A DNA stretch of 38,498 nt from Psammoneis japonica (taxonomy: Eukaryota), in contig QPGO01000366.1 of the NCBI GenBank assembly GCA_008632985.1, positions 1 through 38,498 of the forward strand. Reading direction: 5' to 3'. The notes under the pieces are model-generated. The model made no database searches. It saw only the letters and a list, made by a program, of their open reading frames with translations, and was not told the origin of the DNA. The first letter of the stretch is position 1, and each line of letters begins with the position of its first letter. Made by a program: the position numbers and the translations under genes. This document shows positions 378 to 30,288 of the stretch, in pieces.

Positions 378-630
378 TGTGAGCTAATAGTTTAATTAGA
401 ACTGAGTTGACAACTGGCCTTGTGATGAACACAGATGAACCAATTGTGATTGCTTTGAATTTCGAAAAGGTGAGAAGACGAACGTCTCAACAAGTGTTTT
501 CCGACAAGTGTTTGAGATGTCTTCAACAATTTGGGGGCCGTACGTGCAAACAATTTGGGGCCATAGAAATCGAATGTTGACAATCGGATGTCGTAGATGT
601 CGCGAGGCATAACAGACGTCAACAGTCACA
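378..630 (-). repeat. 3' LTR (253 bp)
   Basis: Starts TGTGAGC, ends GTCACA; aligns to 6262-6515 with 11 substitutions and 1 indel. Confidence 0.95.
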
Positions 631-640
631 CTCCCTCATT
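631..640 (-). other. Polypurine tract
   Basis: Minus strand reads AATGAGGGAG directly before the 3' LTR. Confidence 0.8.
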
Positions 641-659
641 CGATGAGATGGGTCACCAG

Positions 660-1362
660 CCGAAAAGCAAACGACGGAGCTTATAGAAAGCCGCCCAGGT
701 AGCTGTTTCGTGAAGATGTCGGCTTGTTGATCGGCAGTGCGAATGGGTTGAACTTTGATGCGGCCGTTGGCGACTTCGTTGCGAAAGTGGTGAAGTGTGA
801 CGTTGAAGTGTCGAGTGCGTGGGCACATTTTGGGTGCGCGAGCGATCTCCAGTGCGGCGGAGTTATCCTCGAACATCGTGCAATGCATGATGGGTGTCGT
901 TTTCACATTAATGTTTCTTTCCTTGAGTTCTTCCAATGGGCACATGATGGATTTCACATGTCTGGCAGCTGCAGAGAGAGCAATGCATTCAGATTCTGCA
1001 CTGCTGAGAGCAAACATTGTTTGCAGCTTGGAAGCCCAATGTGGGGGCACGTTTGCAAACTTGACAGCAAAACCAGAGCAAGAGCGAGCTGCATCAGGAT
1101 GGTTTGCTGCGACAGCCTTGTCCCAGTTGCCACAAAAATCAGCATCAACATGGCAATCAAGGCCACACATGTCGTCTGGTTTGATGATGTGTCCTTCATT
1201 TCGGGTGGCCAGCAGATGTCTTCCAATGTGTTTGATGGCAGCGCCGTGAGAAGCTTTGGGATTTGACGTGAAGCGGGCGCATTGGTGAGCAGCATGTGCA
1301 ATGTCACCTCTTGTTGATTTTTCTAAGAAGTTCAGTTTTCCAACACAGAGCGGCAGTTCCAT
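660..1362 (-). pseudogene. pol: Copia RT C-terminus and RNase H (degenerate)
   Basis: GKLNFLEKSTRGDIA, LDCHVDADF (YxDAD), WASKLQT...LSSAESECIALS (EAEYIA), FEDNSAA, QQADIFTK. Confidence 0.93.
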
Positions 1363-2279
1363 GATTCCTGAAAAGGTGCACCATCCGGATCGAGTCCGAC
1401 AAGTTTTGCAGTGCTTGCTGGGAGCTCATGTGTCTTGGTGTTGTTTGAATTCAAGTTGTTGCGAGTGCCAATGAGACCAAGGTCTTGGAGAATGCTGTCA
1501 ACAAGTTGTGGTTGGCACAGTTTGAAAGAGCCATCCGGTGACGTTTCGATTTTGACGCCGAGGTGGTCGCCAATGTCGCCTTCATCGGACACACGTGTGC
1601 GTGTGCCGAGGTCCTTGATGCATTGATCAATCTCAGCATCCGAAGGATCAAACACAAGACCGTCGTCGGTGCAAACCAGGAATGTGGTCGTTCCACGGCA
1701 GAAAACACATTCGTTGAATGAAGACTGTGTGAAACCAATGTCGAGCAGTGCGTTTCGTAAGAACACAAACCACGTTCGTCCAGTGTCTTTTCCACCATGT
1801 GTGTTTTTCAATGCTTCCAAACAATGCTTGTTGCGATCCAAATTGGGAAAGTTGGTGCCTCTTGGCAGTTCCACAAAGGTGGGCCTTGGAATGTCAGCGT
1901 GTGGACATGCCAGTGCAAAGTCAACTTGCCTTGATTTCCATTTGAAGAGGATGGAGAGAACAAGGAACAGACGGATGATAGTCCAAGAAAGTGTTGGAGC
2001 ATGGGTTTCCTCGTAATGTTTTCCTTTCTTCATTTTGTGTCCTCCCAAGTTGAGTCGACTTTTCCACTTGCATGCTTTGCGTGTGCCGATGCGTCGCTTG
2101 CGCTTCATGGACCACATTGCAGGAAGAACAGTCTCACCCTGTGGTGCATCAGCCTTTTCAATAACTCGCCAATGTTCTCCCATCGGCATGGTCTTGGACT
2201 TCTTTAACCACAGCTTTCTTGAATTCGTGAGCATCTGGTTCGCGAAGAGCCTCGTGCATGCAGAGAGTGTCCGGGTCAT
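1332..2279 (-). pseudogene. pol: Copia reverse transcriptase (RVT_2), degenerate
   Basis: WSMKRKR, KSRLNLGGHKM, ETHAP, QVDFALACPHA, HGGKDTGRTWF, catalytic CTDD at 1662-1673 (YxDD), GDHLGV. Confidence 0.93.
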
Positions 2280-2592
2280 TGGAAGCTTTCATGCTGTACA
2301 AAATGGGATCTTCTAGTTGATTTCGGTCGTCGTCGATGAGATGCATGTCCTGGGCAATAGCTTCACAAGTGGTTGCAGCGTATGAGACAACATTTTGTTG
2401 ACGTTGAAGTTGTGACTCAATGGCCCTTTGGGTCATTTGGCTTTACGACCAGAGCGAGTTGTGACCGTTGGTGTTGGCGATCCTGAGTCGGCTGCAGAAG
2501 TTTCAGAAGTCTCGTTTGTTGTTGATGGACCTCCCTCATTTGGTGGAGCAGTGGTCTCTGTTTGATCCGAGTGGCTTAGAGATGATCCTGTG

Positions 2593-3700
2593 TCATTTGC
2601 ATTGTCCCATGTCAGTTGGTGGCAAGTCCGACACATCTGGAGCAGGAGCTGCAGTCACCTTGCGTCTTGACTTGTCAGTTGTTTTTGCAGAGAATCTGAC
2701 GCGTGCTTGTTTCTTGCAACGACACTTTTCTTGCCATGCACTTCGAGGGATGACGGATGAGCCTTTGACAGTCTCAAATGGGTCGTCAAATTTGACATGG
2801 TGTTGTGGAGAGGCAAGTCCTGTTTCAAGGTCAAGGACAAGTGCCACAGATCTGGCGTGTCTGGGTGAAGGTCCGAGGTAAATGCCCACTCGTGCTCTTG
2901 TTTCCCACTTTGGCAGATGAGAGCCTGACTGTGACTTGTTCTTTAACACATGCACAGGACATCCAAAAGAGTGGAAGTGTGCGAAGAGCTCCATTGGAGA
3001 TTCGTTTCCAGGAGATCTGGCGGCATGATTGTGCACGTTGTTGGCATGGCGCACAGCACATGGCCACAAGTGGTGATCAACAGCGTTTGGCCAGCAATGG
3101 TGAGCGTGCACAAGTTGTGTTCTCGCTTGCTCTTGTAGGTCTCTAATGCGTTTTTCTGCTCTGCCGTTCTGAAAGTGTGCATTGACTCCGCAACAGGTTG
3201 TATGCTGCCCTTGTTGACGTCCCGATTTGATGAATGCGTTGTCGCGAATCGTCCATTGTCGGCGTGACAGTGTTGGAGACGAACTCCGAGGGAGCAGGCA
3301 AATGCTTCACAAGCAATTTTGGCGTGCAGCGTTTCTTCTGAGGTGATCGATTTCTGCAAGCATCCGAAGGACAGGTCGCTGTGGTGGTCGACGAAGACCG
3401 TGACGCAGCGACATCGTTGACATGTTGGCATGCCCTTGAGTTGAGCTGTCAGTCCAGGCGTGGTGGCGTCGAGTTGGTCGACAGACACCACTTGGCCGGC
3501 AGCAGTGGCTTTGAAAATTTTGGTTTGTTGTGTGCCCTTGGTTCGCCATGGGCCTTGGTGGCTTTACCATGGCGGCATGCAGCGCACACGGGTACGCGGC
3601 AATCAGCGAGGCGCTTGGGTGGGTCTCCGGAGTTAGCCACATGCTTGTGCGTGAGAATGGCAAGTGTCCGAGTCGGCAGTGCCAAAGTAGTAGTTCGTTG
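2593..3700 (-). pseudogene. pol: Copia integrase with GAG-pre-integrase zinc finger, frameshifted
   Basis: CAACRHGK, VSVDQL, TVFVDHHSD, HCHADNGRF, LWPCAVRHA, FGCPVHVL, GIYLGPSP, SPQHHVKFDD, spread over several frames. Confidence 0.9.
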
Positions 3701-4217
3701 GAGGAGTCAGGTCATCTGGGAATGTTTGGTCCTCGACGACTGGTGCGCCAAAGTTTGCATCCGAGAAGTCCACCGTGTTGGGTGTCGTGGCTTCTGGTGT
3801 AGCCGCAGTTGAGTTTGTAGGCGTTGTAGCAGCTGTTGAGTTGCTGTTATCGATGGCCTCGTTGAACGTGTGACGTGCAGTTGGTGCAGTGGTCTGTTCT
3901 TCAGGTAAGTCTTCAGGTTCGGGTTCGATGATGTGTACATTTTGAAATACTTTAGGTTCTCGTGCTTGCGAGTTGTACTCACGCTCAAATTCGTTGTGCT
4001 TGTCATAGGATGGAGCGGAGCGGAAGACTGGTACGTTTGCCTTGGAGAGCGGCATAGTGCGAGAGTATTTCTCGTCTTGCCATCGAAGTATCGTTCGATC
4101 GTGAAGTGTCTTTTCATAAGTACCATCCGGATTGTTGGAAATTGGTGCGAGTACTTGTGCCAAGTGTTGTGGCGAGAGAAGACGAATTGGAAGCGTAGGT
4201 ACGTAGTACGTGTTCGG

Positions 4218-4260
4218 NNNNNNNNNNNNNNNNNNNNNNNNNNNNNNNNNNNNNNNNNNN
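4218..4260. other. Assembly gap (N run)
   Basis: 43 N. Confidence 1.
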
Positions 4261-4798
4261 TAACTTTGCCCTTGAAGGTCGATTTGGCGTTGCCACTTGC
4301 AGCTTCCACGACAACGTTGACCTCAGTTGGTGGTTCAATGAAGTCGTCTTTGTTGTTGGTCATGCAGTGGGAGGCATGGTTGTCAACTCCGATGTTGAAC
4401 GAGTCTGTGTCGAAGTTGTGATCGTGTTGATCATTGCAGTTACAGCCATGGGAGCATGATGCAGTGTGGCATGAGGCGTGCTGCGATTTGAACCGTGTGA
4501 GTCGGCAAGTGGCTTTGTTGCACATGATGAAGTGTCGGCGTTTTCGTCGGATATAACGCATGTTGGTCTTGAGACAGTTTGGTTTCCTTGGTGGTCTACG
4601 ACTTCTCAGGAGACATTCTGTCATTCGTCGTAACCAGGAACGCAGGAGTGGAAAGGAGTGGAGCCAGTTCAGCAGTTCCACCATTGCGCAGCAGATCATG
4701 TTGAGCGCACAGAAGAATGGCAGGAAGACTGCGCACACACCACAGAACAGCCACAGCCGCAAGTGCAGCTTGACTTGCAATGCGGTGCTGACGAGCAC
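4261..4798 (-). pseudogene. pol: Start of pol: hydrophobic linker plus aspartic protease
   Basis: FDTDSFNIGVDNHASHCM (motif core at 4361-4390) occupies the copia protease D-S/T-G position; same frame as gag, separated by one TGA. Confidence 0.7.
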
Positions 4799-6169
4799 TC
4801 ACTCTTGATCCGATGCGTCTTGTGCGCCAATGTTTGCCACAGAGGCAGTTGGGTCAGATTCGGCCTTGTCCTTGATGGTGGTGCAGTCCTTGGTGAGGTG
4901 AGCAGACCAATGCTCGTGATGTTTGCACCATTTGCAGGGTTTGCCCTCAACAGTCTTGGTGTGTGATTGTCCGTCTTTAGGAGCCGTGTTGCGCCAGGCT
5001 AGCTTTCCGTAGAAGAGTTGTTTCTTGCATCCGTTGGGTGGGATCTTGAACTTCTGGCACTTGTTGTGATTGTTGGAACCCGATTCTTTTGTTTTGTTGC
5101 TCTTGGTGGAGCTCTGAGCATTCCTGTTTCTGCTGCTGGCAGAGCGTGGAGCGTTGCGAGCTTTGTTGTCGCGGAGAGTCTTCACTTCGGCTTGTGGAGC
5201 TACGATGGTTTCTTGCTCTTTCGTTGGTGCCATCCACTTTTCAGATTCGATGAGGATCTTGCACTTGTTTTCAGCCTTGAGCATGAGAGCATGCACGTCA
5301 AGATCCGATCCATCTTCGCAGTCACTCTTGCACTTCTTGATGGACTCGATGAATTCTGAGTCGGTGCACGTGAGGCAAGCCTTGAACACGTTGTTCAGCA
5401 GGTCGGAACTGGTGTGGCCGCGAGCAGCAAGTTTCTTTTCCAAAGATTTGACGTGGTTGTTGAAAGTCTTGATGTTTTGACCGTCAACTGCAGCCATGCA
5501 AGCGTCTGGATTGCCCATTTGGTCACGGATCACCGAGACAGCAGCCCTTGTGTCGACTTGAGCCTTGGACAGAAGAGCTTTGAGGTGGGCCACACCGCAT
5601 TCCTCATCTCCAACAGTGCACTGAGCCTTTTCTTCCGTTGCCATGATGGTCTTGGAGGCCTCGTCTAGGGTGCTCTGGAGACATGCGAGAAGCTGGTGGT
5701 TGTTCTGCACGTTGCGTTGCGCCAGATTGAGGCAAGCAGCAGATGCGGTGCGAATTTGTTCAGCTGAGATTTGTCCACACTCAGTGAGCATGTCCTTGTT
5801 CTCGACTGGCAAAGCAGGAACTGCGCCATGGTTGATGTCAATCGTGAGGACTTCGTTCCAACCATTGGCTTTGGAGCGGACTGCGAGTTCTTCGAGGAAG
5901 ACTGGGATGTTGGGCGATTCAAGACTGAACTGGGTGTCCAACGGCTTGGTCGCGTCTACGAAAACGAGCGCGTCGCCTTTCTTGGTGTGGTCTAAAACGT
6001 CTGCACGGGCCAGTGCTGGTGACTTGGCGAAAGGTCCTGGAGCAGCTGCTGCTGGTGGTGCAGGCATGTTGTTCACAATCGGCTGGACAGCCGCCTGGAC
6101 AGCTTGTGCGATGGCATTGGCGAGCGCGTCAGCGCCGGGCCATGACGAGGTCTTGAAGTTCCTGAGCAC
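4799..6169 (-). CDS. gag: Copia Gag (open frame but heavily missense-mutated; true start uncertain)
   Basis: 456-aa ORF after the 5' LTR with C-terminal knuckle CKWCKHHEHWSAHLTKDC; only one Tyr in 456 aa. Confidence 0.85.
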   Translation of the reverse strand: MLRNFKTSSWPGADALANAIAQAVQAAVQPIVNNMPAPPAAAAPGPFAKSPALARADVLDHTKKGDALVFVDATKPLDTQFSLESPNIPVFLEELAVRSKANGWNEVLTIDINHGAVPALPVENKDMLTECGQISAEQIRTASAACLNLAQRNVQNNHQLLACLQSTLDEASKTIMATEEKAQCTVGDEECGVAHLKALLSKAQVDTRAAVSVIRDQMGNPDACMAAVDGQNIKTFNNHVKSLEKKLAARGHTSSDLLNNVFKACLTCTDSEFIESIKKCKSDCEDGSDLDVHALMLKAENKCKILIESEKWMAPTKEQETIVAPQAEVKTLRDNKARNAPRSASSRNRNAQSSTKSNKTKESGSNNHNKCQKFKIPPNGCKKQLFYGKLAWRNTAPKDGQSHTKTVEGKPCKWCKHHEHWSAHLTKDCTTIKDKAESDPTASVANIGAQDASDQE

Positions 6170-6245
6170 GTCTTTGTGCTCCTCTTGTCAAACGGCGCAT
6201 CTTGTTGGTTTGGAGAGAACGTTGCTGGTTCGATCAAGAACACTT

Positions 6246-6261
6246 TGTCGCAGAGGAAGCG
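6246..6261 (-). other. Putative primer-binding site complementary to the D-arm of initiator tRNA-Met
   Basis: Plus strand 6246-6263 TGTCGCAGAGGAAGCGTG versus eukaryotic tRNA-iMet nt 8-25 TGGCGCAGCGGAAGCGTG (16/18); abuts the LTR. Confidence 0.6.
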
Positions 6262-6515
6262 TGTGAGCTGACAGTTTAATTAGAACTAAGTTGACAACTA
6301 GCCTTGTGATGAACACAGATGAACCAATTGTGATTACTTTGAATTTCGAAAAGGTGAGAAGACGAACGTCTCAATAAGTGTTTTCCGATGAGTGTTTGAG
6401 ATGTCTTCAACAATTTGGGGGCCGTACGTGTAAACAATTTGGGGCCATAGAAATCGAATGTTGACAATCGGATGTCGTAGATGTCGCGAGGCATAAATAG
6501 ACGTCAATAGTCACA
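6262..6515 (-). repeat. 5' LTR (254 bp)
   Basis: TGTGAGC...GTCACA, copy of 378-630. Confidence 0.95.
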
Positions 6516-6520
6516 GATCG
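6516..6520. repeat. Target-site duplication GATCG (right copy)
   Basis: Identical to 373-377. Confidence 0.92.
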
Positions 6521-6830
6521 TTTCGATCACTCTTTTGTCGTGCATTCAGAAAGGCAAGCCATGAGGCGTCTAGTGTGAAGGATAAGGCAAAAGTAGAATC
6601 TCATATGGTTAATAAAAATGTGTCGGATTGTTTGACAATGTTTCTTCTTCCCTTTGACCTATCTGATGTACAGAATACGGTGCATCATTCTTTCCTTCTT
6701 GTGTCGTGTGGTCACAAATGCAAACCACAACGGCTCTAGAGCAAAGGCTAAGGCAAAAATAGAGCCGCATATGAGCAATGTTAATATGTATGATTTAATG
6801 GTAAAGTTTATTCTTCCTTTACTGCACCAT
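6521..6830. repeat. Degenerate tandem repeat, rest of unit 2 and unit 3
   Basis: aaggcaaaagtagaatctcatatg (6584-6607) and aaggcaaaaatagagccgcatatg (6750-6773) match aaggcgaaagtagaaccacatgtg (271-294). Confidence 0.65.
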
Positions 6831-7048
6831 AAGGGGCCGCTTTATGTCGATTTGTCGATGCATCCGTCATGGTCGGCGGCGGCAGAGCGTGGCTTTCTAC
6901 CGGCATCATATATCTGGTTGAATGTGGGAAACAGCACACCCGCCTATACAAAATTAGACGGGAATTACCGCACTGCACTCATTTTTTGTTCCTTCCCCTG
7001 ACCCCTTTCAGTCGTTCCTTCCCGCTAAATTACCCTCATTTCCCGGGT

Positions 7049-7110
7049 ATTCCCCAAAAGGGTAAGGCAATTCCCCCTTACCCTTGCCATTTTGGGGAAT
7101 CCCCAAATGG
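7049..7110. repeat. Nested inverted repeats, probable transposon sub-terminus
   Basis: attccccaaaa (7049-7059) pairs with ttttggggaat (7090-7100); aagggtaagg (7058-7067) with ccttaccctt (7076-7085); ccattttgggg-aat-ccccaaatgg (7087-7110). Confidence 0.7.
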
Positions 7111-7689
7111 ATGAAACCAAACCAAGCCTTGAGTTTGCCAAGGCGATGAACAAGTGCAGCACTCCACCGCCATCTTGTGACTGCTGGTGCGTTGAACCTT
7201 CGTCATCCCACACACCGCCGACCACCGACCTGGACCACGCATGGAAACAACATGATCAATCATTGTGAGCACCTGTGTGCATGCATGTGAGTGAGTGCGG
7301 CAAGCAAAATTCTGCTTGATGTGCAGTCTGTCCACACCCAGGCAAAAATCTTGAAATGAAGAAAGGTCCCTGCTGCTGCACGTGCTGCAAGTGTGCGGCA
7401 TCCAACAAAGATCCCGGATCCTTGGATGCAGGTTCCTTGTTGGGTGTGGCTTGTGGCTGGAATTGATTGTTCGAAATTTGGTGCAGATTTCTGTGTGAAC
7501 AGCACAACACGTCACCAAGTTGAAGTTCATTTCATTGGAGGGAAAACAAAAAGAATGAGAATTGTCACGTGCCTGGTTGCTCAACGACGACATTCACAGC
7601 TTCTTGAAAATCCTTGGCTTTTGGCACTGCAACCTGTGCCCACCTTGCCAACCCACCTGCGAAGCTCCCTGAGGGCCGAAGTGCAAAAA

Positions 7690-9694
7690 CCCATCATGTC
7701 TGATGTCCAAAAATTGTTCGCATCAAAACACATGCATTGGCTGTTCTTGGATTCTTGCGTTCAGAATCAATGGATGCCAGCAGACCTGTGGGCAGAGCAC
7801 CACAATGCAAAATTCAATGTCAATGATGAGGGGGTGCAAATCATGGGCAGAGAGTTGAAGAAGCAGTGTGGAAGTGTCGGCGGCATTTCAAATGTTGCAA
7901 AGGAGAACAATGTTGTTGCTGACGAAGTGAGAATCTGTGCAAAACGGAGTGCTCATGTGGCCTTGAGAAGGGTGGAAAACCATCACAACAAATGTTTCTT
8001 TTTGTCACCATTGGCAAGCCCCATTGGCACCTTTGTCCACCAGCAGCAACTGGCAATGACTCTGTGGAAGTGCGGCTGCAAAGTGGATCTGTCAAGACAA
8101 AATTTGGAAGAACTGCACTTGACCACACCAAAATGCCACCCAACACAGATCCAGACACACTCAACAGTGACAAAGCACAACAAGCAAAGAAGAAACAACA
8201 TCTTTCTGAAGAAAAAGACAATGATGGGATGTCAGTTGAAGAGCTGGATTCTGTCAGGTGACAAATTGCACCTCGACACACGACTGTTGGGATTCGACTC
8301 AAGTGCACAGCATTTTTGCACCGACCTTGGTTTACCCAGATGATGTTGATGTAAAGACAGTTGCACAAGATCGCGCTGACATTTTGTCTGCTGTTGTCAA
8401 TCATCCACATGGCTTTAAGTCAGTGTTGCCTGATCAGGATGACAAGAATCTGGCTGCCGACTGTGAAAAAATGTGTCCATTCGGCATCGTGCACTTCACA
8501 TCATGGCAGTGCTTCAGGCTGCACTTGACAACCTCAAGGGGGGAGGAAAAGAGATTGAGGGCAATGTGACTTGGGGCAAGTGCTGTTGACATGCTGCAAA
8601 AGATGGGCTCCAGCCCCAGGTGGGTCTTTTTGTGACATTTGGCCTGCACAATTCTGCATGCAAGCTCTGAAGCAAAATTGTTCAGTGATTAAAATGCAAA
8701 TGATCGCCAACAGAAAAAGAGGCAATTTTGTGAATGCATCTCCTCCTCCACACTTGAAGTGCATTGTTCACATTGTGCCCGGGTGCGTTCTTCAGACATT
8801 GAAGAACACACCCAGTGCATTTTCATTGTCACAAGTGCAGAAAATAAAAAGCCTTTGGCTTCACAAAACAGGCAGCAGAGAACAATTTTTTACAATGCAA
8901 CACGCAGAAATGTGTGCGCAAAACATGCAACGGATGACGAAAAACATTTTGTCACAGGTCAGCAGTGCGAGGTCCCACCCAGAGCTGGAATGCATCAAAA
9001 AAACTGGAGGAGGATGGTGTTGTTGCCATCACGAACTGGCTTGCTGTGCAGCATTGGTGTCAACATTTGGCACAAGTGGGAGACCACTTCCCTCAAAAAA
9101 CCAAAAGAGGCAAGCCTGCACTCCCACCTTTTTTCAGCGGCAATCCTGAAGTCAAGAATGCATTCATTTGGCAAGCAGCGCGCAATCTGAAAGATCTTTC
9201 AATTGAGTTGATGCACCACAAGAGCCTTTGCCAGAAGACAATTCCTCCTGCACTGCTGCTGAGCACAAAGAACGATGTTGTTGTGGAAGATGTGATGAAT
9301 TTGAACAAACTGTTGAGTCTGCTGGCAAACTTCATTTGCCAACTGAAGAAGAGGAAGATGCCAAAAGTTTGTTTCTGAAGCAGTTTGGACCAAGGACACT
9401 TTCCAATTGACAGCAGCATGATGGGTGCGTCTTCTCAGATTCAAGTGTGCTCACAGGATGAAAAGCTTTTGTGTTGATGGTTGTGAGAAGCCTGCCATGA
9501 AGGCGCATCAAAAACAACTCACCAAAGAACACCTTGAGTTGGAGACAAGGTGCCACAGGTGGGTGCAAGTTCCGCTGGAAGAAGCAACGGAGCTCATGAA
9601 TGCAGACTCCCTCTTTGCAGTGCACTTGGTTGGGCAGCTCAATCACTCATTTTCAGCACTCATTCCAGAGGATGGAGAAAGTTCATTTCCCTGA
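7690..9694 (+). pseudogene. Degenerate DNA transposase, probably IS630-Tc1-mariner-like (5' part; catalytic region not seen)
   Basis: 9422-9590 reads WVRLLRFKCAHRMKSFCVDGCEKPAMKAHQKQLTKEHLELETRCHRWVQ, fitting the W..LG(F/W).Y...K..YxDGHE...YR motif of such transposases once Cys/His are reverted to Tyr. 5' extent approximate. Confidence 0.55.
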
Positions 9695-11039
9695 ATGGAC
9701 TGGATTCAAAATTTTCCTGAGACAATGCAAAACAAAGTGTCTCTACAAACCAGTTGTTTGAGCTGTCAAAAATTGTGCTGCAATGATGGATTCTGTTGTG
9801 GAATGAGGCATGGGCAGGAAACTCTTGTTTTGGCGGGAAACTTCCCTCCAACATGGCCCCAATTTGCTGTCCGCAGCCACCCTCCTGAACTTCTGAGTTT
9901 GCTTCCCACAAATCTTCATTGCCAGCCATGCTGCATGGTCTCTTGTGTGCTTTTGCATTCAGCTCCTTTTGGCCCCTCATGTCCAATGGGGGGAAGCCGC
10001 CCTTGCCATCTCCTGGAACAAGGATCAAGAAGGTGGCAACCAGGATGGCTGTCAGCAGCAGCTGGGGTGCTTGCCTTGATGTTGTGGCACGCAATGTTGC
10101 CACGGAGCTGAGAAACTTTCTCTCTCTACAAACCAAGTCATTCATGCAGAGAGTCAACTTTGTCACAGATGCCGCAGAGCTTCTGCCGTCTCCCAAAGCC
10201 AAGCAACTCATTGCCTTTGTTTGTGACAACTTTGTGAGCCAACAAGCAAAACAAAGCATGATGGGAGAAGATTCCTCCCATGCTCCAAATGCTGCACAAG
10301 CAGAACAAGTCCAAAAGGACTGCAATCCTGTGTCCAAGACAGCTTTGGCATCGGCCACATCTGCCCATTTGACTCCTGCTCTTGAGTTGTTTCCTGGAGA
10401 TTTTTTCCCATTCTTCAAAGCTGCCCAACAATTTCTTGATCCAGATGCTAAATCCAACTGCAATGACAACAAGGCCAAGAAGAAGAAAAATCTGTCTGTT
10501 CCTGCAATGAGCAAGTTTAGCCACAAAATGCCGGGTTGTCACTTCAAAGCAAGAACATTGTTGCTGCACCATCAAGGACGAGCCCCTGCAAGTTGCAAGG
10601 GATCTGTGGCCATGATGGTGCCACAACCCCAAAACTTGGTGGGAGCACATTCTTGCCAAAGGTTCATGGGGTCTTTCTCCATTGGCAAAACTGCACGTGT
10701 GCAGCTCATGACAAAAAATGACCCAAATGCACCACCAAAGGACACACAGAGAAAAACTGTGGACCACTTTTCATCATTGGAAGATCTGCCCACATCCATG
10801 TTGCAGCTCAAAATGCAGGAGCTCCACAACAAGGTTTCGAACAAGATTTGCCACTGCATCACACAGAGACAAAGAGAGGTGGCAACAATGGCCCACCCTG
10901 CATCAGAAATCTGTCTTGATGGAAAATCATCTGACACAAAAATCTCCTGCACACAAGACCCAGTTTTGCACTGTCACAAATGGGGTTTGCAGGTTCCAGA
11001 GGGTTTCAATGCAGAGCCCGTTTCTTTGGAAGTTTGCAC

Positions 11040-11525
11040 TTGACAGCCACCTTGGCCTTCACCACTTGTTGCACCCACCTCAGTTTGTTCTTGGTCAACA
11101 ATTTTGACTCTCAGGATTTAAGATGCAATCCCTCAACTTGTGGCAATGATTGGGATGTGCCAGCCACCTGGAGGAGCTTGTCCAGTTGGAATGCCACAGC
11201 CTTGGGATTCACCATTGGCTTGGGTGCCATTTTGATTCTGGTGCTGACATGATTCACCACCTTGCAAGTTCTGTTGGCCACCACAGCCTCCACAGCCATG
11301 ACCACCACAACCACCTTGATTACAACAGTTTCCTTGTTCTCAACCTGGGTGTCCACCTTGGCCACCACAACCTTGTGGACCACAACCTTGACAGCCGCCT
11401 TGGCCTCCACCACGGCCATTGTTGCATCTACCTCAGTTTGTCCTTGGCCAACAATTTTGACTCTCAGGATTTAAGATGCAATCCTTCCACTTGTGGCAAT
11501 GACTGGAATGTGCCAGGCATCTGGA
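11040..11525. repeat. Direct repeat ~135 bp (11040-11172 and 11389-11525)
   Basis: Both contain caacaattttgactctcaggatttaagatgcaatcc...acttgtggcaatga; duplicates the zinc-knuckle segment. Confidence 0.88.
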
Positions 11526-12340
11526 CTCTGCTTTGACACAAGTGCCATTGCTGTGGCTGCATCTTGAGGCTTGGTTGGATGAGAAAGTTCCTTTCCTCTT
11601 CTCATCTTGTTGTTTCTTGGTGTTTCCCTTGTCTGCAAACAACTTCTTGTTGTTCATGCAACTGGCAATCTCCACCCAGCTCTGGCATGCTTCTCATGCC
11701 AGGGTCAAAAGGAAAACTGTCAAAAATCATCTTCTTCTTCTGGGCACCTTTGGCTTGTGAGACATGTTTCCTGGGAGCTTGTTTGAACAATGCATCAACA
11801 TCTCCATGCAATCTGCACATGCCTGCACTTAGGATTGAAAAAGGTTTTTTCAAAGTTGGCAAGCACCCAAGCATTGCATCATGTGCCTCATTGTCAGAAC
11901 AAGACAAACAAAAGCAACTCATCTCTTGATCAAAGCACACCACCATTTTCTGAGGGTCTGGAATCGAATCAGTCAAATTGGCCCACACTTGTCCTCAGCA
12001 GCATCTCCGTCAGCACTTCTTCAAAATTTTCGAACAATTCTGCACCAGTCATGAACTCCAATTTTGCAGCAATCTTACAAGTTCAATCTTCAACAAACAG
12101 CAGTGATTCAATGCCGTGAAAGACATCAAAACAAGGACACTTCTTAGCATGAGCAGTGCCATCATCATGCAATTGAGTTGATTTTACGCTCTCCAAGTGA
12201 GAATGCTCAAATTTTGCCTCACAGTCAATGCAGGGCTCCTTCAATGATTCACTCATTGTCAAAGATCAAATGCAATCACACAATGATCCTTTCTGAGGGC
12301 TCCACCTTTCTCTCCAATTGTTGCCATTGGATTGCCAAAT
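11040..12340 (-). pseudogene. Degenerate retrotransposon Gag-like ORF (CHHC knuckle, Gly/Arg-rich tail), possibly Ty3/gypsy
   Basis: GAELFENFEEVL, DAMLGCLPTLKKPF, KKMIFDSFP, CLAHSSHCHKWKDCILNPESQN, then GRGGGQGGCQGCGPQGCGG (eroded RGG/YGG). Confidence 0.5.
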
Positions 12341-12992
12341 CTTGTTCTTGGCAATTGTGTTGTCTCACTCCTTTTCTTGTGCTGAATGGCCCAGTTTGCT
12401 GTTTTTGCTTGCAGTTCTCTTTTTCTCTGTTTCAAATGTTGATCAGTTGGGAACAACCCCAGTTTCCATCCAATTCCTCTGTTGACTGCAATTGCAGTGC
12501 AAGGTGAAACAAGACAAAGACTTCAGCATCAACAGATTTGTGAGGAGAGGCCAAGGCAATCAAGGTCATAAACAGCAAAGCCCATTGCAGTGGCTTTCTC
12601 TAACTGCCGATGCATTTTTTGATGCTGCACGTCAGAAACAACAGGTGCACAACACTGCAACTTTTGTGGTGGCATGCCGCAGGCACTTTGCAAAATGTCT
12701 TGGCTGCATTCCCATCTCCTTGCTCTCTTTGAGCACACTTGAATGCTGTTGTGTTGCTTGTCACTGCATGTGCAATGTTTGCCATCAGCACCATCATCAT
12801 GGTGTGCACACAAACAAGAAAACCCTGTTGTTGACTTGATGACACGAAACATGACAACAGCCCAAGAAAGCAAAAGTTCAGATGCAAGCAGAGAGCAGCA
12901 TGATGACAACAGTTCTTTTTGAGCTCCATTGTTCACAAGCTGTTGCCATCTTTCTTGTTGTTTGTCATGATTGCTGCCATGGGACAGGCATT

Positions 12993-13317
12993 GATGGGGA
13001 TCTGTTCTGGTTGGATGCTGCCAACTGATGACAACAATGTTTGCATGAGACACCCTGTGTGCAGTTGGAAACAAACTGCTTGTCAATGACATTTTTCAAA
13101 ACAAATTTAACTCAACCAGCAGGATGGTGCCAAGCAGAAATGCTGCCCCCAGGGGGTTCTGTCAGATGAGCTGTGAATGACTGTGTGACACTTTGAATGA
13201 GATGGGGATTTGGGCTGGATCTGCAATCTGGCAAGGCAACAACAATGTTTCCATGAGACACCCCATGTGCAGTTAGAAACAAACTGCACATCAATGATGT
13301 TTTTTGAAAATGAGTTT
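12993..13317. repeat. Direct repeat ~115 bp (12993-13108 and 13201-13317)
   Basis: Shared gatggggat...acaacaatgttt.catgagacaccc..tgtgcagtt.gaaacaaactgc...tcaatga. Confidence 0.8.
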
Positions 13318-16132
13318 CACTGCAGCCACCTGGCAACTCCCCTCAGTCGCTGTTGCTGCTGCCAGACAATTCACTTGAGCAGCCCGTCTCATCCTCGCTG
13401 CTCCCCAAATGACAGCTGGAAAAGTTTGCAGCCTTTGTCACCCACCAAAACTCTGCATGCTGATGGGTGCACTCATTGAGGGTTTTTTTTGTTTTGTCAC
13501 CCAGCAATCTGCCAACACTGGCATCAAACATTGACATCTTCTCCAGCAGAGAAAATCTTTTGTTGTCAAGCTGCTCTTTTCACCATTGCATCAATGAAGT
13601 GCACGTGCAAGAACATTGTTTTAAAGGCTGTCATTGCCCAAGTGCCAAAAATGCAGAAAGCAAACTGCAGATCACAGAGTGAGGGGGGGGTGCAAAAGCA
13701 GTGTTCAGAGAACAGAGCTCATGGCAAAATCTGAAAAAGTGACAAAAGAGCATGCATCAAAAACAAGAGCAGCCAGATCAAGCCACAAAATTGACAAGAA
13801 CAAGAGGAACAAAACAAAGCAGATGCATGCCATTGCAGCATGCCTTGCCACATGTGGGTGGCAGATTTGGATCCATGTGATGAAAAAGCTCCACCTTGTA
13901 AAATTTGGCATGCAATGATTTGAAGTCTCTGCAGATGCTGTGAGATCATGATGCAAGCAGGAGAGGCTGGCCGGCAATGGATCTGACACTCATCAAACAT
14001 GGCCCATCTGTCCTGTTGTTCAATTGTGGCATGTCCATGGCAGAAAGCAACAATCTGATGTGGTCAGCTGTTCTTGAGAAACATGGTGTCAGTGCAGGAC
14101 AATGGCTTGCATGGCATGTGCAATGCCTCAAAGCAATGGATGTGCCAGCATTGTGAGAGATCATTGAGAGGGTGATTTCCAATGGCAAAACCCTGTCTCC
14201 TGTCTGGTTTTGCAGGAAACACCAAAGGGGGTGGATGCAGCACCCACAATCAGTGGCATGAGGCTGGAAATTGAAGCACCAGAGACAAGCATCATGTCAC
14301 AAACTTGGCTTGCAAAGGAGTGCCTGGTGATCCAGAGTTGGACCCACCTGCAAACAGGGATCCCTTTGCAAGGACAAGATGATCCACACCATGCAAATGG
14401 TGCAAACAGCCACTGTCACATGGCACAAATGAGGTTTAGAGAAAATGGCTTTGTCAACAACATGGCAGTCAAACCATTGGCAGACATCCTTGGGTGGAGC
14501 ATCTGGATCAAACAGACACTTGGATTGTGGAGGCATCAAAGATGTCACAGTGTTGGGTGTGCAGGACAAAGGGGACATTTTTGATGCAGCGCAGTTGCAG
14601 CCAAGCTCATCACCAACAAGGTCCTTGAAATCTGCCATTGCAGAAGTGCCTGATGTTGTCACAGGTGGAGGTGCTGATGTGCATTTTTGTGGGAATGAAT
14701 TGTCAGAGAGTTTGTTCCAATCCTGGCAGTTGCGTTTCATGCTTGGGTCAAAGTGCATCTCCACAGTGCTGGTGACAATGGTCACTTTCTGAGCACAATT
14801 CTTTGCAGTCAAACATCATCTGTCATGAGAGACATCATCAACCACTGGAGTTCAGACAAGAAGAGGAGCCCCTGCTTGAATGGAGATTCCACTGACTTGG
14901 CATCAGCAGGGTCTCATGTCTGTGGGATGAGGATGTTCTTGAGGATGTGCTCTCTTGACAGAGGTGGCAACAATGCCATCTTTGGATTGGGTGTGTTTGG
15001 CATCATCATGAAAGGATCAAGATCAAGTGGCAACTTGCCACAAACTTCACCCATGTGCTTTGAGACCTCAGAGAGATGTGGGTGTGCTGGAAACATGATT
15101 TGAACCTCTCAGAGGCTGTTGGTGGTGTGCTTTTCACTCTCAGTTGGCACCATGGTTCTCAGGTGCACAAAAAGGTGGTCATGCACAGCCATTTGATTTG
15201 CACTCAGGAAAAGCCAATGTTGCCATTTGTCAGCAAGCCACTGGTGCCACTCCAGTCTTCAACAGTGATGCCAAGTTTGTTGCAAAAACCAGCTCAGTGG
15301 CACAAACGGGATGATGTTTTTAGCACTGTTTTGTGTCTCAGAAAATGCCTTGGTTCTGAGAAAAAGGTGCTTGCGGGAGCAGAAAAGTGAGGCAGACTCG
15401 ATGGGCTCACAAAATGATCAAGGCAAGATGGGATTTGCAGCGCAAATGAACATGCGATGGCACAAGGCCACAACCTAACGGAGCAGCGACAGCAAGGGTG
15501 ACACACGTGTGAGACCTCCCTGCAAACCGATGACAGTGACAACACGTGTGCTAGCTAAGAAGAAAAAATGAGAAGTAAATCTCGGATGGAGATCTGCTGT
15601 GTCCGAGCACCGTACATCACTCGGTCAGCTGACATTGAAATGAAGCATTGCCGATTGCTTTGATGGGGGTGGCAAATGTGACTCACCCTCTTTAGACATA
15701 GAGAATGTGGAAACGACACGGAGTAGAAAGTAGAATGTATTGATAACAATAATTCTGTACAAAGGAGAGCTTCATAATGTGACATCACTAGTCATCTGGT
15801 CCGTTTTGTTTGTCGTACAATACATACTTTTGGTGGAGCGTCGCCGGATGATAGATGGACAGCCTGCTGTTTCAATTTTCAATTATGCTAGGTCAACACC
15901 AGACCTCCCATGTTGGGAGCGGTTGGCATAATGTTACTCAACGCTACTCTGGCTATCTATCTCTATTCTACAGTACCTAGTATGCAAGGCTTCTCTCTCT
16001 AGAGGCTACAGTAAGTCGTATCACGGTACTCTTATAATGCCCGCGACGTTTGATCTCGTGCAGTCAATGAAGCTTGTCTTTGAATATGACACCGTTCAAG
16101 AAAACAGGAAGGAAATCCCATACCAGTGTCTG

Positions 16133-17717
16133 TCATCTGCGATTGCTGCGTTCGTGTTGAGCCTTGGCGGCTTTCTTCAAGTAAGGTTGCATCTCCTTCT
16201 GCCTCTTCGTTCGACGCTTTTCGGCAACAGAAATCTTGTTCTCCACGAGATTCTTTAGTTGGTCCATCTCCTCTTTGCTCACTTCTGGCCAGCATTTTGG
16301 ATACCACGGTCCATCTAGCTCAGCGACTTCATCCGCGCTACGTGCACCGTTTTCTTCGTTCCACAAAACGCTTAATTCCGTCCCATACCCACGGGGTATT
16401 ACAGAACTTCCCGGGCCATACCGTATGGAATACCTTCGATATACCAGAGCCTTGTCGTGGTCGTGGTTATGGCTTTGTACCACACTCCGTTCAAACGGGA
16501 CCGTTCGATGAAAAACCCATCTCTCGTGAAATATGATGTCTCCTCGTTTCAAATCATAAACTCGCCTGGTCTCTTCCATGCGTCGATGGATATGCGGTGC
16601 CTCCACCTCCAGGTTACATGTACCTGCACCAATTCGGTTCTCAAACATGTCAGCCACTGACTGAAATCCTTCTGTCGGGAACGTAAGAGTAGAACCTATT
16701 GCACGGTGAGCATCATGACGCCATGAGGCACTGTGTGAGCCTACCGCCAGAGCGAATCCACCCCCATTCGCAATGGGCATATCGTCGATGGCTATCCAGG
16801 CATTCACACCGGGAGAAGAGGCAGTTGCGGGCCAGAAGCCTAGATCATCGACGTGCCAACCACAAACGTACTCTTCGTCGTCTTTTGTAAGAAAAATATC
16901 CCTAACGCGCAAGCAAGAGAAAGCTTAGCATGAACAACAAGATGGCTTCGAGCAACACACGACAAATTAGACAAACAATTTCGTCACCTCATTAGGCGCA
17001 GGGTTTGGTTCTTGTCAGTTGATAAGCCAAGAAGATCAGCCGCAAACTCTGGTACAGCAGAGGTGAGAGCCACTTCTCTGAATGCAGATAAATCGCGGCT
17101 TTGTCTCTCATCGTCAGAAGGTCCGACATTGTCCTTTTCTATTTCACCGTTTTCGTCGTTTGAAGATGGAGGATCAAGAAAAGCAGCTCCCATTCGAACC
17201 ATGTGAAACTGTGTATTGGATCGTTTCTGATTCCGCTTCTCGTCAACAATGCGTTGCTCACTAACGAGCTGGGCAGAAGCATGTTCTAGTCGTAGAAGCA
17301 TATCGTCCGTCAATAGGCCCCTGATAGCAACGACACCATCTTTTGCAAAGGCGGATCTGATATCGTTCGTAACTAGCTTCCACTTCCTACAGTCACATTA
17401 TGTATGATTGGATCATCAATTTCTGGGGCCTTGCCCAGGGGAGCTCGGTATTTTAGTCGCGTCTCGAATGCATGAAAAAGCTCATCATCGTTGGTTACAA
17501 TAGCTACAGCCACTGCAACAAGAAGTACAGCAAATGCCATGGAAAGCGCCCATTTCGAATTGCCAAATAAAGCGATTCGATCTGTCAATTCGTACAGAAA
17601 CTGCGATCTCTTGTCCTCCTCGTCTTCAAACAATGAATCTTCCTCCTCCTCTTCCGAAGACAAAACGTCATGGGAAGAATCATCGCCACTCTCGTCTCCA
17701 CTGCTGCCATCATCCAT
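16133..17717 (-). CDS. Phytanoyl-CoA dioxygenase (PhyH)-like 2OG-Fe(II) oxygenase with N-terminal TM segment
   Basis: FAKDGVVAIRGLL, GWHVDD (HxD), VNAWIAIDD, GSH, GDIIFHERWVFHRT; intron 16902-16987 joins in frame (MR|DIF); one probable indel near 17390; start at MDDG assumed. Confidence 0.82.
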
Positions 17718-18285
17718 TGTTCGGTTCTGACGGTGTAAGGTTACCAGGTATGATGGTGCTTCAAAGTGTAATACTTGTAACCGTATTATTTGCCACATGT
17801 GCGGTGCGGTGTTTTTCTTCATCGTGTACTGACCGTCGTTCGCTGATTTGTCGATCGGCACTTTATTCTCAGCGTCCAAAGGATGCACCTCAATGGCGAG
17901 TGCGACGCTGTAACGATAACGATTTGGCACACGATACGTAGTGCACTCGTTCTATACACTACCGCAGGAAGCATATGATTATTGATTGTAACATTGATTT
18001 AGTCGAACGACGATGCTGTCGATGTCTTCGCAATTCACAATGGCCGATGGCGGTATGAGAAATGGAGCAACAACAACTTCAACAACTCATTCAAACACGT
18101 AACGGCGAATGCAAAATAGATCCGATGAAGAGAAAAGCATTAATCTTGCTGTAGATAACCTCACCTGAAACTCCAAGGACTATTGGGACTACCGGTATGA
18201 TACAGTATTAGGTCGAGTAAATGCTCTTTTCAGCAGAGATTGTCAAAGACGATGACACGCCACCTTGGAACATGATGTCACATTG

Positions 18286-18372
18286 TACAATGTATTGATA
18301 CTCGGTGCTTCCTATGGATCCCTCTTGGCAACAGAGATTCTTCTTGCCGGCCACAAAGTTACTTTGGTAGAC
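18286..18372 (+). pseudogene. Isolated N-terminal Rossmann-fold fragment (ketopantoate-reductase-like)
   Basis: YNVLILGASYGSLLATEILLAGHKVTLVD is a clear beta-alpha-beta start; similarity ends after ~30 aa. Confidence 0.55.
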
Positions 18373-18837
18373 CGAGAGCCACGGTTGCGGCGCTGGTTGA
18401 ATTGCTTGTTCATAATCGAGCCGAACGTTAGCATCGTATGCGGGTGGAGCTTGCTGCGCCTCAATTAGGCACAAAAGCCCACTGCTGGGACGTTCGGCGG
18501 CACTATTGCAAAGGCGATCCGCCCCTGCAGTTAGCTATTTCGTCTTTTTGCAATACTGTTCTCAGGTCCGTCAAATTGGTGAGAACTGCGGGCCCTCAAG
18601 ACTTGGTATCTATTGTAATTTCAGATGAGGGACTCACTGTGTCGGCGAATGCCAGAATTACCGTGAAGCCTACTTCTCAACGGCTTTGACGCAGGTCTTG
18701 CCAATTGCTTTGCCGACTGGAAGAGCAGTCTTCCCCTCAACAGCGCGTCTCATCCAGGCAGCTGCTCGGACCAACCAGCAAACGCTAATATCCCGGACTA
18801 CTTTGACTTTCGGCAAAGAAGTCTATTCCCTACCTTG

Positions 18838-19277
18838 ATTCTCTTCAAGGCATTGTCGGCTTCTGCCATGCAAGTTGCAGAGAATGCAGGTATCGAAGGA
18901 GCCGTGGTTCTAGCCAAGATTCAATCTCTTACGGAAGAAAAGGGAGTAAGTTGTCTTTGTATCCGGCCGCCCTCTAGTATTGTTATGAGGCATCCTCACG
19001 GAATCTTCTCGTTATCCTCTGTCCTTGCAGTTTGGTTGGTGCTGGGATGCTGCCACCCTTGAATGCTGCGACTTAATGGAGAGAGGTGTCATAAACCCAG
19101 CCAAGGTGACTATTAACGCCATTGAAAACTCGGCCAGTGTGGCTGGATTGGTTCTCACAACTGAATGCCTACTAGTGACGGAAATTCCGACTGAGATGAG
19201 CGAAGAGGATAAGCAGAGGATGTTTGACGAAAAAAGCCACGGGAGCAGGCATTGGTCCCGGTATTCCAGGTGCGTAG
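18838..19277 (+). pseudogene. cpn60: 3' fragment of chaperonin 60 (GroEL/Cpn60)
   Basis: QVAENAGIEGAVV, intron 18946-19030, then GVINPAKVTINAIENSASVAGLVLTTE and a GAGIGPGIPGA tail after a frameshift; the N-terminal ~80% is absent upstream. Confidence 0.85.
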
Positions 19278-22026: not shown

Positions 22027-22712
22027 AGATTGTCCGCAGCCATACGCCACTTATCGCTACCTGTCTCATTACATGCTGTCTCTGCGGTCAAGACGATTGA
22101 TCTCCCTCTGAAGAGTCGTGAGTGTTAATTGCCAAGGATTCCCGACTCTCGTCAATTACGATGCAGTAGGCAGGAGCAGTGACCAATAAGATCGCACTAC
22201 CAAAATTGCAAAAGGCGAGAACTGTTGGACAAAGTTGATGCTTGTTGGACAACACGCTAAATGAACAGACCCTACAGAATGAGTGTAAAGGTACGAGCTT
22301 TCATCATGTATTTGAAAAACGATTAGCTTCAAAGTCGCCATATGCCTAATTTCATAACACATTCACACAGATTATCCGCAGCCATACGCCACTAATCGCT
22401 ACCAGTCTCATTGCATGCTATCTCTGCGGTCAAGACGATTGATCTCGCTCTGAAGAGTCGTTAGTGTTAATTTGCAAAGGGTTCCCGACTCTCGTCAATT
22501 TCGATGCAGTAGGTGGGAGCAGCGACCAATAAGATCGAACCACATAAACTACAAAAGGCGAGAACTGTTGGACAAAGTTGATGCTTGTTGGACTACACGC
22601 TGAATAAACAAACCCTACAGAATGAGTATAAAGGTACGAGCTTTCATCATGTATTTGGAAAAACAGTTAGCTTCAAAACTCGCCATGTGCCTAACATCCT
22701 AACACATTCACA
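22027..22712. repeat. Tandem duplication, 2 x ~342 bp (22027-22368, 22369-22712)
   Basis: Direct alignment, e.g. caaaaggcgagaactgttggacaaagttgatgcttgttggac in both; roughly 85-90% identity by eye. Confidence 0.95.
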
Positions 22713-23315
22713 GAGTACTTGAAACCACAACAGAAAACTTCCCGACTAGTAGAGTTATTCAAAGTCATTAAGTACTTCACGCAAAACCAATGCTGAATCC
22801 GTCTACGGTGCAAGCACCACACTGTCCACGGCCAATGGTGCTTGTTCAGGCCCAAAAAGGAATCATCGAATCGGGCATTGAGTTTTCAATCCCCCACAAA
22901 GCTGAATCCATAATGTTGAATGTAAAGGTACGTGTTGTGCGTAATATGTGCCGAACTGCAGGCGCCACGAAGATTCTGCACTCGATAGACCCGAAACTTG
23001 CCGATCGACACGATCACAAAAGCAACTGCACCACGATGATTCATACACACGGATCCAGCATGTGGTCAGAAAACCCGCCGCCAGACTCAATTCTTCCCTT
23101 TGGAACTGGCAAAGCAAACAAAAGCAAGTGTGAGTGTTGCTGCCTACAGTCCTTTCCGAACCCAGTCTTCGTCCCGCCTCGCCATTTCCCCGATTCCTTT
23201 TCTCTCTTTTCTAAATACTCCACTCCCTTTCTCTAACTCCCGCTCCTGTCTTTCTATCTTCAATTACCACTTTTCTCTCTTCCCATGCATTTCTTCGTTC
23301 CCTCAAGCACTCGAA

Positions 23316-25249: not shown

Positions 25250-25360
25250 CTGTTGCCAAAATGTCTGATCACCAAAAACAACATTTAAGCAATGAAATGT
25301 GCCGTTGTTCGTGACTGAAGGAGATGTTTTGAAACAACCCGAAGCGCGCGGGCGATGGGC

Positions 25361-25368
25361 GCGCGAAA
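25361..25368 (-). promoter_or_regulatory. E2F-like site TTTCGCGC (second copy 25495-25502)
   Basis: Matches TTTSSCGC about 110 and 250 bp upstream of the 25249 ORF start. Confidence 0.3.
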
Positions 25369-25649
25369 ATTTATTTCGATTGATTTATTTCTCTCAACCA
25401 AGAACCGCTCATACGATCAGCATTCTCTTCAACGACAATGCAAGCTGTGTTCGTGGTGACTGAGGGATGCACATGTAAGAATTTTTTCTGAACTGCGCGA
25501 AAATAAAGAGGGTGGCTGAGTGGGCCACCAGAGTTGAACATTGCCGACGACAGAACTTGGCCATTCTACAATCTGGCAATCTGATGGTGGCAAGGATGAT
25601 TCAACATTCATGGCAATGGAATCCATCACGCAATGGGCTGTCATACATG

Positions 25650-30247: not shown

Positions 30248-30288
30248 ATTTTCTATTTTGTAAGAGCTAACACACAGTACACTGTCAA

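Follow-up and report, generated by a model that had tools for sequence, protein, structure and literature searches.

The 38,498-nucleotide contig QPGO01000366.1 of Psammoneis japonica, analysed here over its full length (the window), raises the question of what has removed the dinucleotide TA from long blocks of DNA and from a copia-type retrotransposon while the housekeeping genes nearby were spared. Dinucleotide counts give 970 TAs in the window, an observed/expected ratio (o/e) of 0.38, and their spread is very uneven. We hold with moderate confidence that a post-integration process, acting at the DNA level with adenine-deaminase chemistry, makes A:T to G:C transitions at TpA in mobile or otherwise non-genic DNA of a diatom-type nuclear genome.

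Outside the retrotransposon, the window falls into the following parts:
7080-15551 (8472 bp): main erased block; TA o/e 0.05, CpG 0.20, TG 1.85, CA 1.77; no Pfam domain.
25501-28900: second fully erased block; TA o/e 0.09, CpG 0.21; holds a gap of 327 N at 27558-27884.
23301-25500: partly erased block; TA o/e 0.23, CpG 1.02 (intact).
6516-7079: TA-normal spacer between the copia element and the main erased block; TA o/e 0.78; contig depth 1675-2600 against about 115.
15552-23300 and 28901-38498: gene regions, used as internal control; TA o/e 0.68 and 0.59, CpG about 1.0 (1.01 in 28901-38498).

In the main erased block, 27 TAs were found where 371 were expected from the gene-region o/e (Poisson P = 2e-120). 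The longest TA-free run, bounded by TAs at 7079 and 8333, has a chance probability of 8e-25 at the gene-region density of 0.043 per base. The hand counts of the first-pass annotation (no TA in 7081-8332, 5 in 12001-13020 and 17 in 29281-29640) were reproduced exactly, and its claim that the loss affects the copia element and a block at 25.6-28.9 kb and spares the housekeeping genes agrees with the ratios (0.05-0.23 against 0.59-0.68). The second erased block ends ~170 bp short of the start codon of the PfkB gene. The expected, that is ancestral, dinucleotide levels were taken from the gene-region o/e values, which is an assumption. On this footing, what was lost balances what was gained: 344 TA and 376 CG (720) against 368 TG and 342 CA (710) in 7080-15551, 253 against 276 in 25501-28900, and 53 TA and no CG against 41 TG and 9 CA (50) in 23301-25500, where the outcome is strand-biased. 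The G+C content is unchanged in the erased blocks, the missing TA and CG reappearing as TG and CA, and AA and TT are without depletion. TG and CA are both enriched on one strand, and these gains agree with the earlier statement that both DNA strands are affected.

An inverted repeat of 23 nt, with arms at 7045-7067 and 7082-7104, spans the switch from TA-normal to TA-free sequence, which falls within its loop. In the partly erased block lie two minus-strand open reading frames (ORFs) rich in His and Cys. Each has 3 Tyr, against 15 His in one and 21 in the other, as a change of Tyr to His on that strand would lead one to expect, and no homologue of either was found.

The copia-type element, a long terminal repeat (LTR) retrotransposon on the minus strand at 378-6515, has LTRs at 378-630 and 6262-6515 that begin and end with TG...CA, and contains these features (RT, reverse transcriptase):
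373-377 (left) and 6516-6520 (right): target-site duplication GATCG, a perfect 5 bp, read directly; flanks both LTR ends.
378-630, minus strand: 3' LTR; 8 of ~15 ancestral TAs lost, the outermost ~25 bp unmutated.
631-6261, minus strand: interior, with a gag-like ORF, an integrase SH3-like domain, RT and RNase H.
622-1362, minus strand: RNase H ORF, without any Tyr; 5 conserved Tyr columns now 2 His, 1 Cys, 1 Phe, 1 Leu.
1332-2279, minus strand: RT ORF; 11 conserved Tyr columns now 5 Cys, 3 His, 2 Phe, 1 Tyr; the YxDD motif reads CTDD.
3551-4270, minus strand: TA-keeping island, o/e 0.73, Tyr codons kept; ends at a gap of 43 N at 4218-4260.
6262-6515, minus strand: 5' LTR; 3 of ~15 TAs lost, two of them at most 11 bp from the interior edge.

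Pfam recognised RVT_2 (E = 7e-26) and SH3_retrovirus in the element, and a purine-rich tract, GAATGAGGGAG on the minus strand, starts at 631, just inside the low-coordinate LTR. The edges of the element coincide with the target-site duplication, and its flanks have TA o/e of 0.71 and 0.78. TAs are dense up to 355 and from 6571 on, and the depleted element between them is 378-6515. The interior parts 613-3550 and 4271-6254 have TA o/e of 0.12 and 0.11, with a CpG o/e of 0.79. The annotated span of 378-15550 is not uniform, because the LTRs keep 8 and 11 TAs and both the island at 3551-4270 (o/e 0.73) and the spacer at 6516-7079 (o/e 0.78) hold TA. The island may reflect patchy mutation, or the assembly may have been joined here to a family member that escaped mutation.

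The two LTRs of an element are identical at insertion, and differences between them therefore arose after integration. Over 254 aligned columns, the LTR pair shows 11 differing bases in 10 sites, plus one single-base indel. Nine of these sites are TA in one copy and TG or CA in the other, and the tenth is a CA versus TG doublet; all are transitions, and no other base differs. Changed bases number 11 of 60 at TA sites and 0 of 446 elsewhere (P = 3e-11). All 12 CpGs are the same in both copies, so that 11 of 30 TA site-copies were lost against 0 of 24 CpG site-copies (P = 6e-4). This pattern indicates that the process hits integrated DNA, that it is TpA-specific, and that it is faster than both CpG decay and ordinary substitution. 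It also bears out the earlier claim that TpA loss is distinct from CpG decay by deamination of 5-methylcytosine, since the LTRs lose TA and not CpG.

The coding sequence of the element carries the same change. An RT column was counted as conserved Tyr where at least 60% of nine homologues (34-56% identity) have Tyr. The 16 conserved Tyr columns of RT and RNase H together now hold 6 Cys, 5 His, 3 Phe, 1 Leu and 1 Tyr, which makes 11 of 16 Cys or His: Tyr codons (TAY) became TGY (Cys) or CAY (His). The presence of both outcomes in a single reading frame means that both strands were hit, and the two interior parts gained 70 + 40 TG and 81 + 48 CA. Judged from its sequence, the element is inactivated by missense changes of Tyr to Cys or His, including the YxDD motif, and not by stop codons. 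In the earlier wording of a genome-defence system, the inactivation stands, but the adaptive function was overstated. The LTR pair, the Tyr to Cys/His changes, the balance of lost and gained dinucleotides and the abrupt limits at the target-site duplication together uphold what the first-pass annotation had proposed as the core of the phenomenon, a directional A:T to G:C change at TpA on both strands of DNA. The RNase H ORF also has Arg to Cys changes at conserved positions (for example, KMRPRTRH in relatives and KMCPRTRH here), the CGN to TGN trace expected of early CpG decay in the copia element.

The TAs that survive are not a random sample with respect to their neighbours. Retention was measured against the density in gene and flank DNA (R, purine; Y, pyrimidine). 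In the old blocks, 7080-15551 and 25501-28900, 1 of 157 expected RTAY sites survives (0.6%), 21 of 258 mixed RTAR/YTAY sites (8%) and 23 of 97 YTAR sites (24%; P = 5.5e-8); at the extremes, 11 of 23 TTAA sites survive (48%) and none of 44 ATAT sites. The same order was found in the young blocks, where it is weaker (P = 0.035). A pyrimidine precedes every one of the 6 Tyr codons that survive (13/13 versus 18/24 mutated, P = 0.07). A model with independent strands, built from RTAY and YTAR retention, predicts 3.8% for the mixed sites, where 8% is seen. Taken one strand at a time, this means that an A:T pair is attacked best with T before the A and a pyrimidine after it (5'-T-A-Y). The rule for retention is solid, and the corresponding rule for which strand changes is suggestive.

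Related elements in metagenomes show the same state. A scan of metagenome contigs by RT alignment retained 80 loci; erased copies are under-sampled, since a Tyr is part of one of the two patterns searched for. The whole-locus TA o/e ranges from 0.24 to 0.94 and is mostly 0.5-0.8, and in 6 of the 80 rows a stretch of 1 kb falls below 0.25. Two of the rows, L055 and L069, are one locus in two assemblies (99.9% identical over 8037 bp). In L055, the interior has TA o/e of 0.00-0.24 over ~6 kb with normal CpG, and the flanks are normal (0.8-1.2). The depletion stops at the 3' end of the element; the tail of the 5' LTR and the next 146 bp are spared, and the erasure runs through the 3' LTR. In the last 69 bp of the LTR, 7 bases differ, and 6 of them are TA in the 5' copy versus TG or CA in the 3' copy. 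At the conserved Tyr columns, L055 holds no Tyr, 4 Cys, 4 His and 1 Phe, L004 holds 2 Tyr, 4 Cys and 2 His, and L037 holds 3 Tyr, 2 Cys and 3 His. The TA-normal loci L012, L001, L033, L003, L044 and L031 hold 6-9 Tyr and no Cys or His, and L047, whose whole-locus TA o/e is 0.37, does the same; L018 has one Cys and L002 two His at these columns. The flank rule is found in L055, with retention of 0, 0.08 and 0.48 for RTAY, mixed and YTAR sites (P = 3e-16), and is absent from its flank (P = 0.15); L037 gives 0.03, 0.37 and 0.69 (P = 8e-10), and L004 gives P = 0.04. These three distinct loci with related copia elements thus show the same erasure and the same flank rule as independent replicates.

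A 13-mer resembling a primer-binding site, CGCTTCCTCTGCG, lies at 6249-6261 (minus strand), directly after the 5' LTR of the window element, and is identical after the 5' LTR of L055 (L055 positions 70-82). Despite this common 13-mer, the RT proteins of the two elements are only 42% identical.

The copia element, 23301-25500 and L055 lost most TAs and little or no CpG, and the old blocks lost both, which suggests that TA erasure comes first and that CpG decay is slower and probably separate. The CpG o/e is 0.20-0.21 in the two old blocks, and this decay pattern is absent from the copia element, from 23301-25500 and from L055. Deamination of 5-methylcytosine would account for the CpG loss of the old blocks as a process of its own. 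CpG has gone to TpG or CpA there, with loss balanced by gain; such deamination cannot remove TpA, and it was the slower of the two in the LTR pair.

Copy number does not simply set the target. Summed contig depth in run X1, a rough measure of copy number, suggests that 6400-9300 is multi-copy, reaching 54,000 at 8647-8967, with 8326-9288 at very high copy; most of 9300-15700 lies at the depth of the neighbouring gene (~110-135), and 10573-12177 at two to three times that. The earlier term 'repeat-targeted' is not borne out by these values: the spacer at 6516-7079 has ~15 times single-copy depth and normal TA, while most of 9600-15551 has single-copy depth, is erased and lacks a recognisable transposable-element domain. 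Likewise, the DNA-transposase relic and the Gag relic that had been named as targets went unconfirmed, Pfam giving no transposase or Gag domain in 7080-15551 or 23301-28900. Searches with 59 stop-to-stop ORFs (38 of 7080-15551 and 21 of 22772-28674) gave no Pfam domain above the curated cut-offs. Mobile-element or otherwise non-genic DNA is the best reading of the erased blocks.

The proposed mechanism is as follows. An adenine of the TpA step would be deaminated to hypoxanthine, which pairs with C, and TpA would become TpG or CpA according to which strand's A:T pair changes. Our leading guess for the enzyme is a polynucleotide adenine deaminase of the TadA/ADAT kind, which would be directed to silenced chromatin and not to sequence duplication. 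The target adenine of TadA is preceded by U/T and, for bacterial TadA, followed by C; the natural tRNA target of the TadA/ADAT enzymes is A34, preceded by U33. This target context of TadA, ADAT2-ADAT3 and the base editors derived from TadA matches the 5'-T-A-Y preference suggested by the survivors. The chemistry is inferred, as are any defence function and whatever guides the process, be it chromatin, RNA or neither.

The closest precedent is a live process. Mutation-accumulation lines of the rhizarian alga Bigelowiella natans carry two integrated viral regions whose mutation rate, in only some of the lines, is ~1000 times that of the remaining genome (Mettrop et al., bioRxiv 10.64898/2026.01.13.699255). 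According to the main text of this preprint, 210 of 211 mutations in a region from a nucleocytoplasmic large DNA virus (NCLDV) and 20 of 20 in a virophage region are A>G or T>C, all at TpA; RT and DDE domains are over-represented among TpA-poor coding sequences, and the authors suggest an ADAT2 homologue as the enzyme responsible (bioRxiv 10.64898/2026.01.13.699255). The same text describes the main target as single-copy, with viral regions that still hold many TpA (Rho 0.45), and cites natural DNA activity for a few ADAT2 proteins only (bioRxiv 10.64898/2026.01.13.699255). As far as this text goes, the likeness lies in the exclusive A>G/T>C change at TpA, the restriction to foreign DNA in a normal host genome, the fall of TpA with a rise of CpA/TpG, and the proposal of an adenine deaminase. 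Here too, the changes are transitions only, at TpA only, and confined to mobile DNA with normal flanks, as seen for the copia element; for 7080-15551 and 23301-28900, no domain vouches for a foreign origin. The two cases differ in that mutation was caught live in a rhizarian alga there, whereas here an end state is seen in a diatom-type genome, with near-total erasure (o/e 0.05), retrotransposons as a clear target, CpG decay superimposed in the older blocks, and a flank rule. The first-pass annotation knew of no description from diatoms; this preprint documents an identical signature as mutation in progress in B. natans, full-text literature searches turned up no diatom report, and the words diatom, CpG and flanking are absent from the main text of the preprint.

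Repeat-induced point mutation (RIP) of Neurospora and other fungi resembles the process in its dense, directional transitions that inactivate mobile or repeated DNA in sharp contrast to genes. RIP, however, makes TpA from CpA and creates stops, whereas here TpA is destroyed and TAA and TAG are removed. The signature of RIP, TpA excess with loss of CpA/TpG, is not what the main erased block shows (TA o/e 0.05, TG 1.85, CA 1.77), and the first-pass annotation was right that fungal RIP runs in the opposite direction.

A bolder form of the proposal, which we put forward only tentatively and think more apt to be wrong than right, would have a chromatin- or RNA-guided DNA adenine deaminase descend from the tRNA A34 deaminases, retain their taste for U33-A34-pyrimidine as 5'-T-A-Y, and be common to stramenopiles and rhizarians, as a heritable defence against transposons and integrated viruses that works through missense without stops. 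It would follow the transcribed part of the copia element, sparing the 5' LTR for the most part and the final ~25 bp of the 3' LTR. Such a transcript-span model fits 9 of 9 single-LTR events in the window (chance ~2% by our own estimate), but misfits L055, where the 5' LTR tail and the following 146 bp were spared. Either protection by promoter-proximal chromatin or guidance by the element transcript would fit the uneven loss.

Several observations weigh against an adenine deaminase that acts after integration. The copia interior lost ~82% of its TAs and the LTRs 20-53%, so that either targeting was uneven or part of the loss is older than the insertion. One RTAY site, GTAC, persists in both LTRs. 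The strand outcomes predicted by T-A-Y are weakly borne out, with 19 of 29 informative sites in agreement (P = 0.07), and in the 69-bp LTR tail of L055 two of three mixed sites are opposite to the prediction. For 7080-15551 and 25501-28900, the ancestral state is approximated by the composition of the gene regions, which is an assumption. Run X1, the source of the supporting contigs, may be the assembly's own source sample, with its library type off record, and no TA-holding copy of the repeat family appeared among the 40 best-supported X1-window differences listed. Finally, the sequence fits the A and its paired T alike as the attacked base.

This last point leads to the rival that survives best. 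The attacked base could be the T of the TpA step. In silenced DNA, a TET/JBP-type dioxygenase or some other modifier would turn it into 5-hydroxymethyl- or 5-formyl-uracil, and mispairing of this base with G, or its faulty repair, would give T>C. Modified thymine at TpA steps is known from the telomere repeats of kinetoplastids and from dinoflagellates. The flank rule and the mutated pair fit either base equally, and CpG has decayed too in the blocks where TA loss is deepest, so that their DNA is probably chemically marked. We nevertheless regard an attack on T as unlikely, if a serious contender, because TA was lost with CpG intact in 23301-25500, the copia element and L055, which indicates that heavy CpG decay is not needed. 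In addition, the sole experimental precedent, as its main text presents it, proposes adenine deamination, itself an untested proposal (bioRxiv 10.64898/2026.01.13.699255).

Error-prone repair synthesis recruited to heterochromatin, for example Pol-eta-type misincorporation opposite T at WA motifs, was among the candidates of the first-pass annotation, and the A>G bias of Pol eta at WA motifs is indeed known and speaks for it. We consider it improbable. None of the 10 LTR sites lies at AA or in another context outside the TA-type dinucleotides, transversions number zero, AA and TT are undepleted in the blocks, and the process is nearly complete, as the RTAY retention shows.

Editing before integration, by an ADAR-like enzyme on element RNA or by a deaminase on single-stranded cDNA, followed by insertion of the hypermutated copies, is a shade less probable still. 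It would account for an interior that is far more depleted than the LTRs and for a 3' LTR more depleted than the 5' LTR, in the window element and in L055 alike, and APOBEC editing of retroviral cDNA shows a similar gradient. As in the APOBEC3/ADAR systems, clustered, enzyme-driven transitions disable selfish elements, and ADAR prefers U before the edited A (bioRxiv 10.64898/2026.01.13.699255, Discussion). Those enzymes, however, act on cDNA or RNA and are strand-specific, whereas the LTRs here diverged after insertion and both strands were hit about equally in the copia element (6 Cys to 5 His, with the TG and CA gains alike). Most of the erased DNA is also without a retroelement signature, and the B. 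natans mutations arise during culture in integrated, non-retroviral DNA, as described in the preprint's main text.

A sequencing artefact, in which a base modification at TpA in the blocks is miscalled as G or C by the sequencer or polisher, is very improbable. The assembly is imperfect, since it has N gaps and differs from the X1 contigs by many small indels, and the unrecorded library type of X1 leaves this explanation some room. Run X1 holds half of the sampled words of 6400-16000, runs X2 and X3 next to none, and no RNA holder is listed for this span. The X1 contigs cover 9556-16000 in pieces at a word depth of ~110-125, with ~1-2.6% other letters, and are TA-free; because they are deep and not letter-identical to the window, the TA-free sequence is present in read data. 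The 40 best-supported differences between X1 and the window (194 further ones fell outside) include 7 TG/CA doublets, 17 of CpG type, 9 others and no TA versus TG/CA. The doublets were dropped as evidence of TA mutation, an ancestral CG being another possible source. Metagenome contigs of other samples, including SPAdes-style ones, are in the same state, with erasure, Tyr to Cys/His changes and the flank rule, which is stronger evidence for real bases than X1. The mass balance and the LTR pattern are also as real mutation predicts. In one X1 contig, only 2 other letters separate 7086 from 8605, and the completely TA-free 7087-8604 (1.5 kb) may therefore be an insertion that a different copy or allele lacks.

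Least probable of all is an intrinsic TA poverty, by codon or dinucleotide preference or by selection against UpA in element RNA: UpA avoidance is common in RNAs and viruses according to abstracts, and most relatives are already below 1 at 0.5-0.8, but conserved and catalytic Tyr are replaced here where TA-normal relatives keep them, the LTRs of one insertion differ only at TA, and non-coding DNA is hit equally.

If the process proposed here is real, diatoms, which are major primary producers of the ocean, carry a mutator that rewrites TA in mobile DNA. What was first described in 2026 from a single rhizarian alga would then reach a second large lineage and, judging by the metagenome contigs, further organisms. 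Its fingerprint in sequence would be a loss of TA with a gain of TG/CA, in which RTAY sites are erased and YTAR sites are spared. With this fingerprint, silenced DNA could be located, insertions ranked by age (TA goes before CpG) and false gene calls flagged. The flank rule would narrow the search for the enzyme, and a natural adenine editor of double-stranded DNA would be relevant to research on genome defence and base editing.

The risk of false gene calls arises because the change of TA to TG or CA removes TAA and TAG and creates no in-frame stop, leaving erased DNA full of long open frames; 6500-15800 holds 40 ORFs of at least 90 aa, with long frames on both strands and in each of the six reading frames. 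The ORF at 24110-25381 had no homologue in a search limited to proteins of near its length. The sole match of the ORF at 7360-8340 is one unnamed 167-aa protein, itself Tyr-poor, and atlas searches of 9889-11040 and 7360-8340 gave no usable match. The in-window repeat pairs 11066/11419 and 13031/13239 were set aside as evidence, being too short or ambiguous. A tandem repeat in the gene region at 22027-22715 consists of two 343-bp copies that are 91% alike and keep 18-21 TAs each; 9 of their 31 differences are TA versus TG/CA and run in both directions, and the repeat is not clearly hypermutated.

The gene region 28901-38498 contains a PfkB kinase, pieces of a DnaG-type primase and UCH by Pfam. 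The best identity of the PfkB protein to a homologue is 48%, and every organism-named match among the 120 listed comes from Fistulifera, Pseudo-nitzschia, Mayamaea, Cylindrotheca, Stephanodiscus, Thalassiosira, Epithemia or Attheya, all of which we take to be diatom genera. On the minus strand at 32936-34893, three adjoining ORFs with a CHC2 zinc finger, a DnaG catalytic core and Toprim domains form a bacterial-type DnaG primase gene in this diatom-like nuclear contig, its frames split either by introns or by assembly indels.

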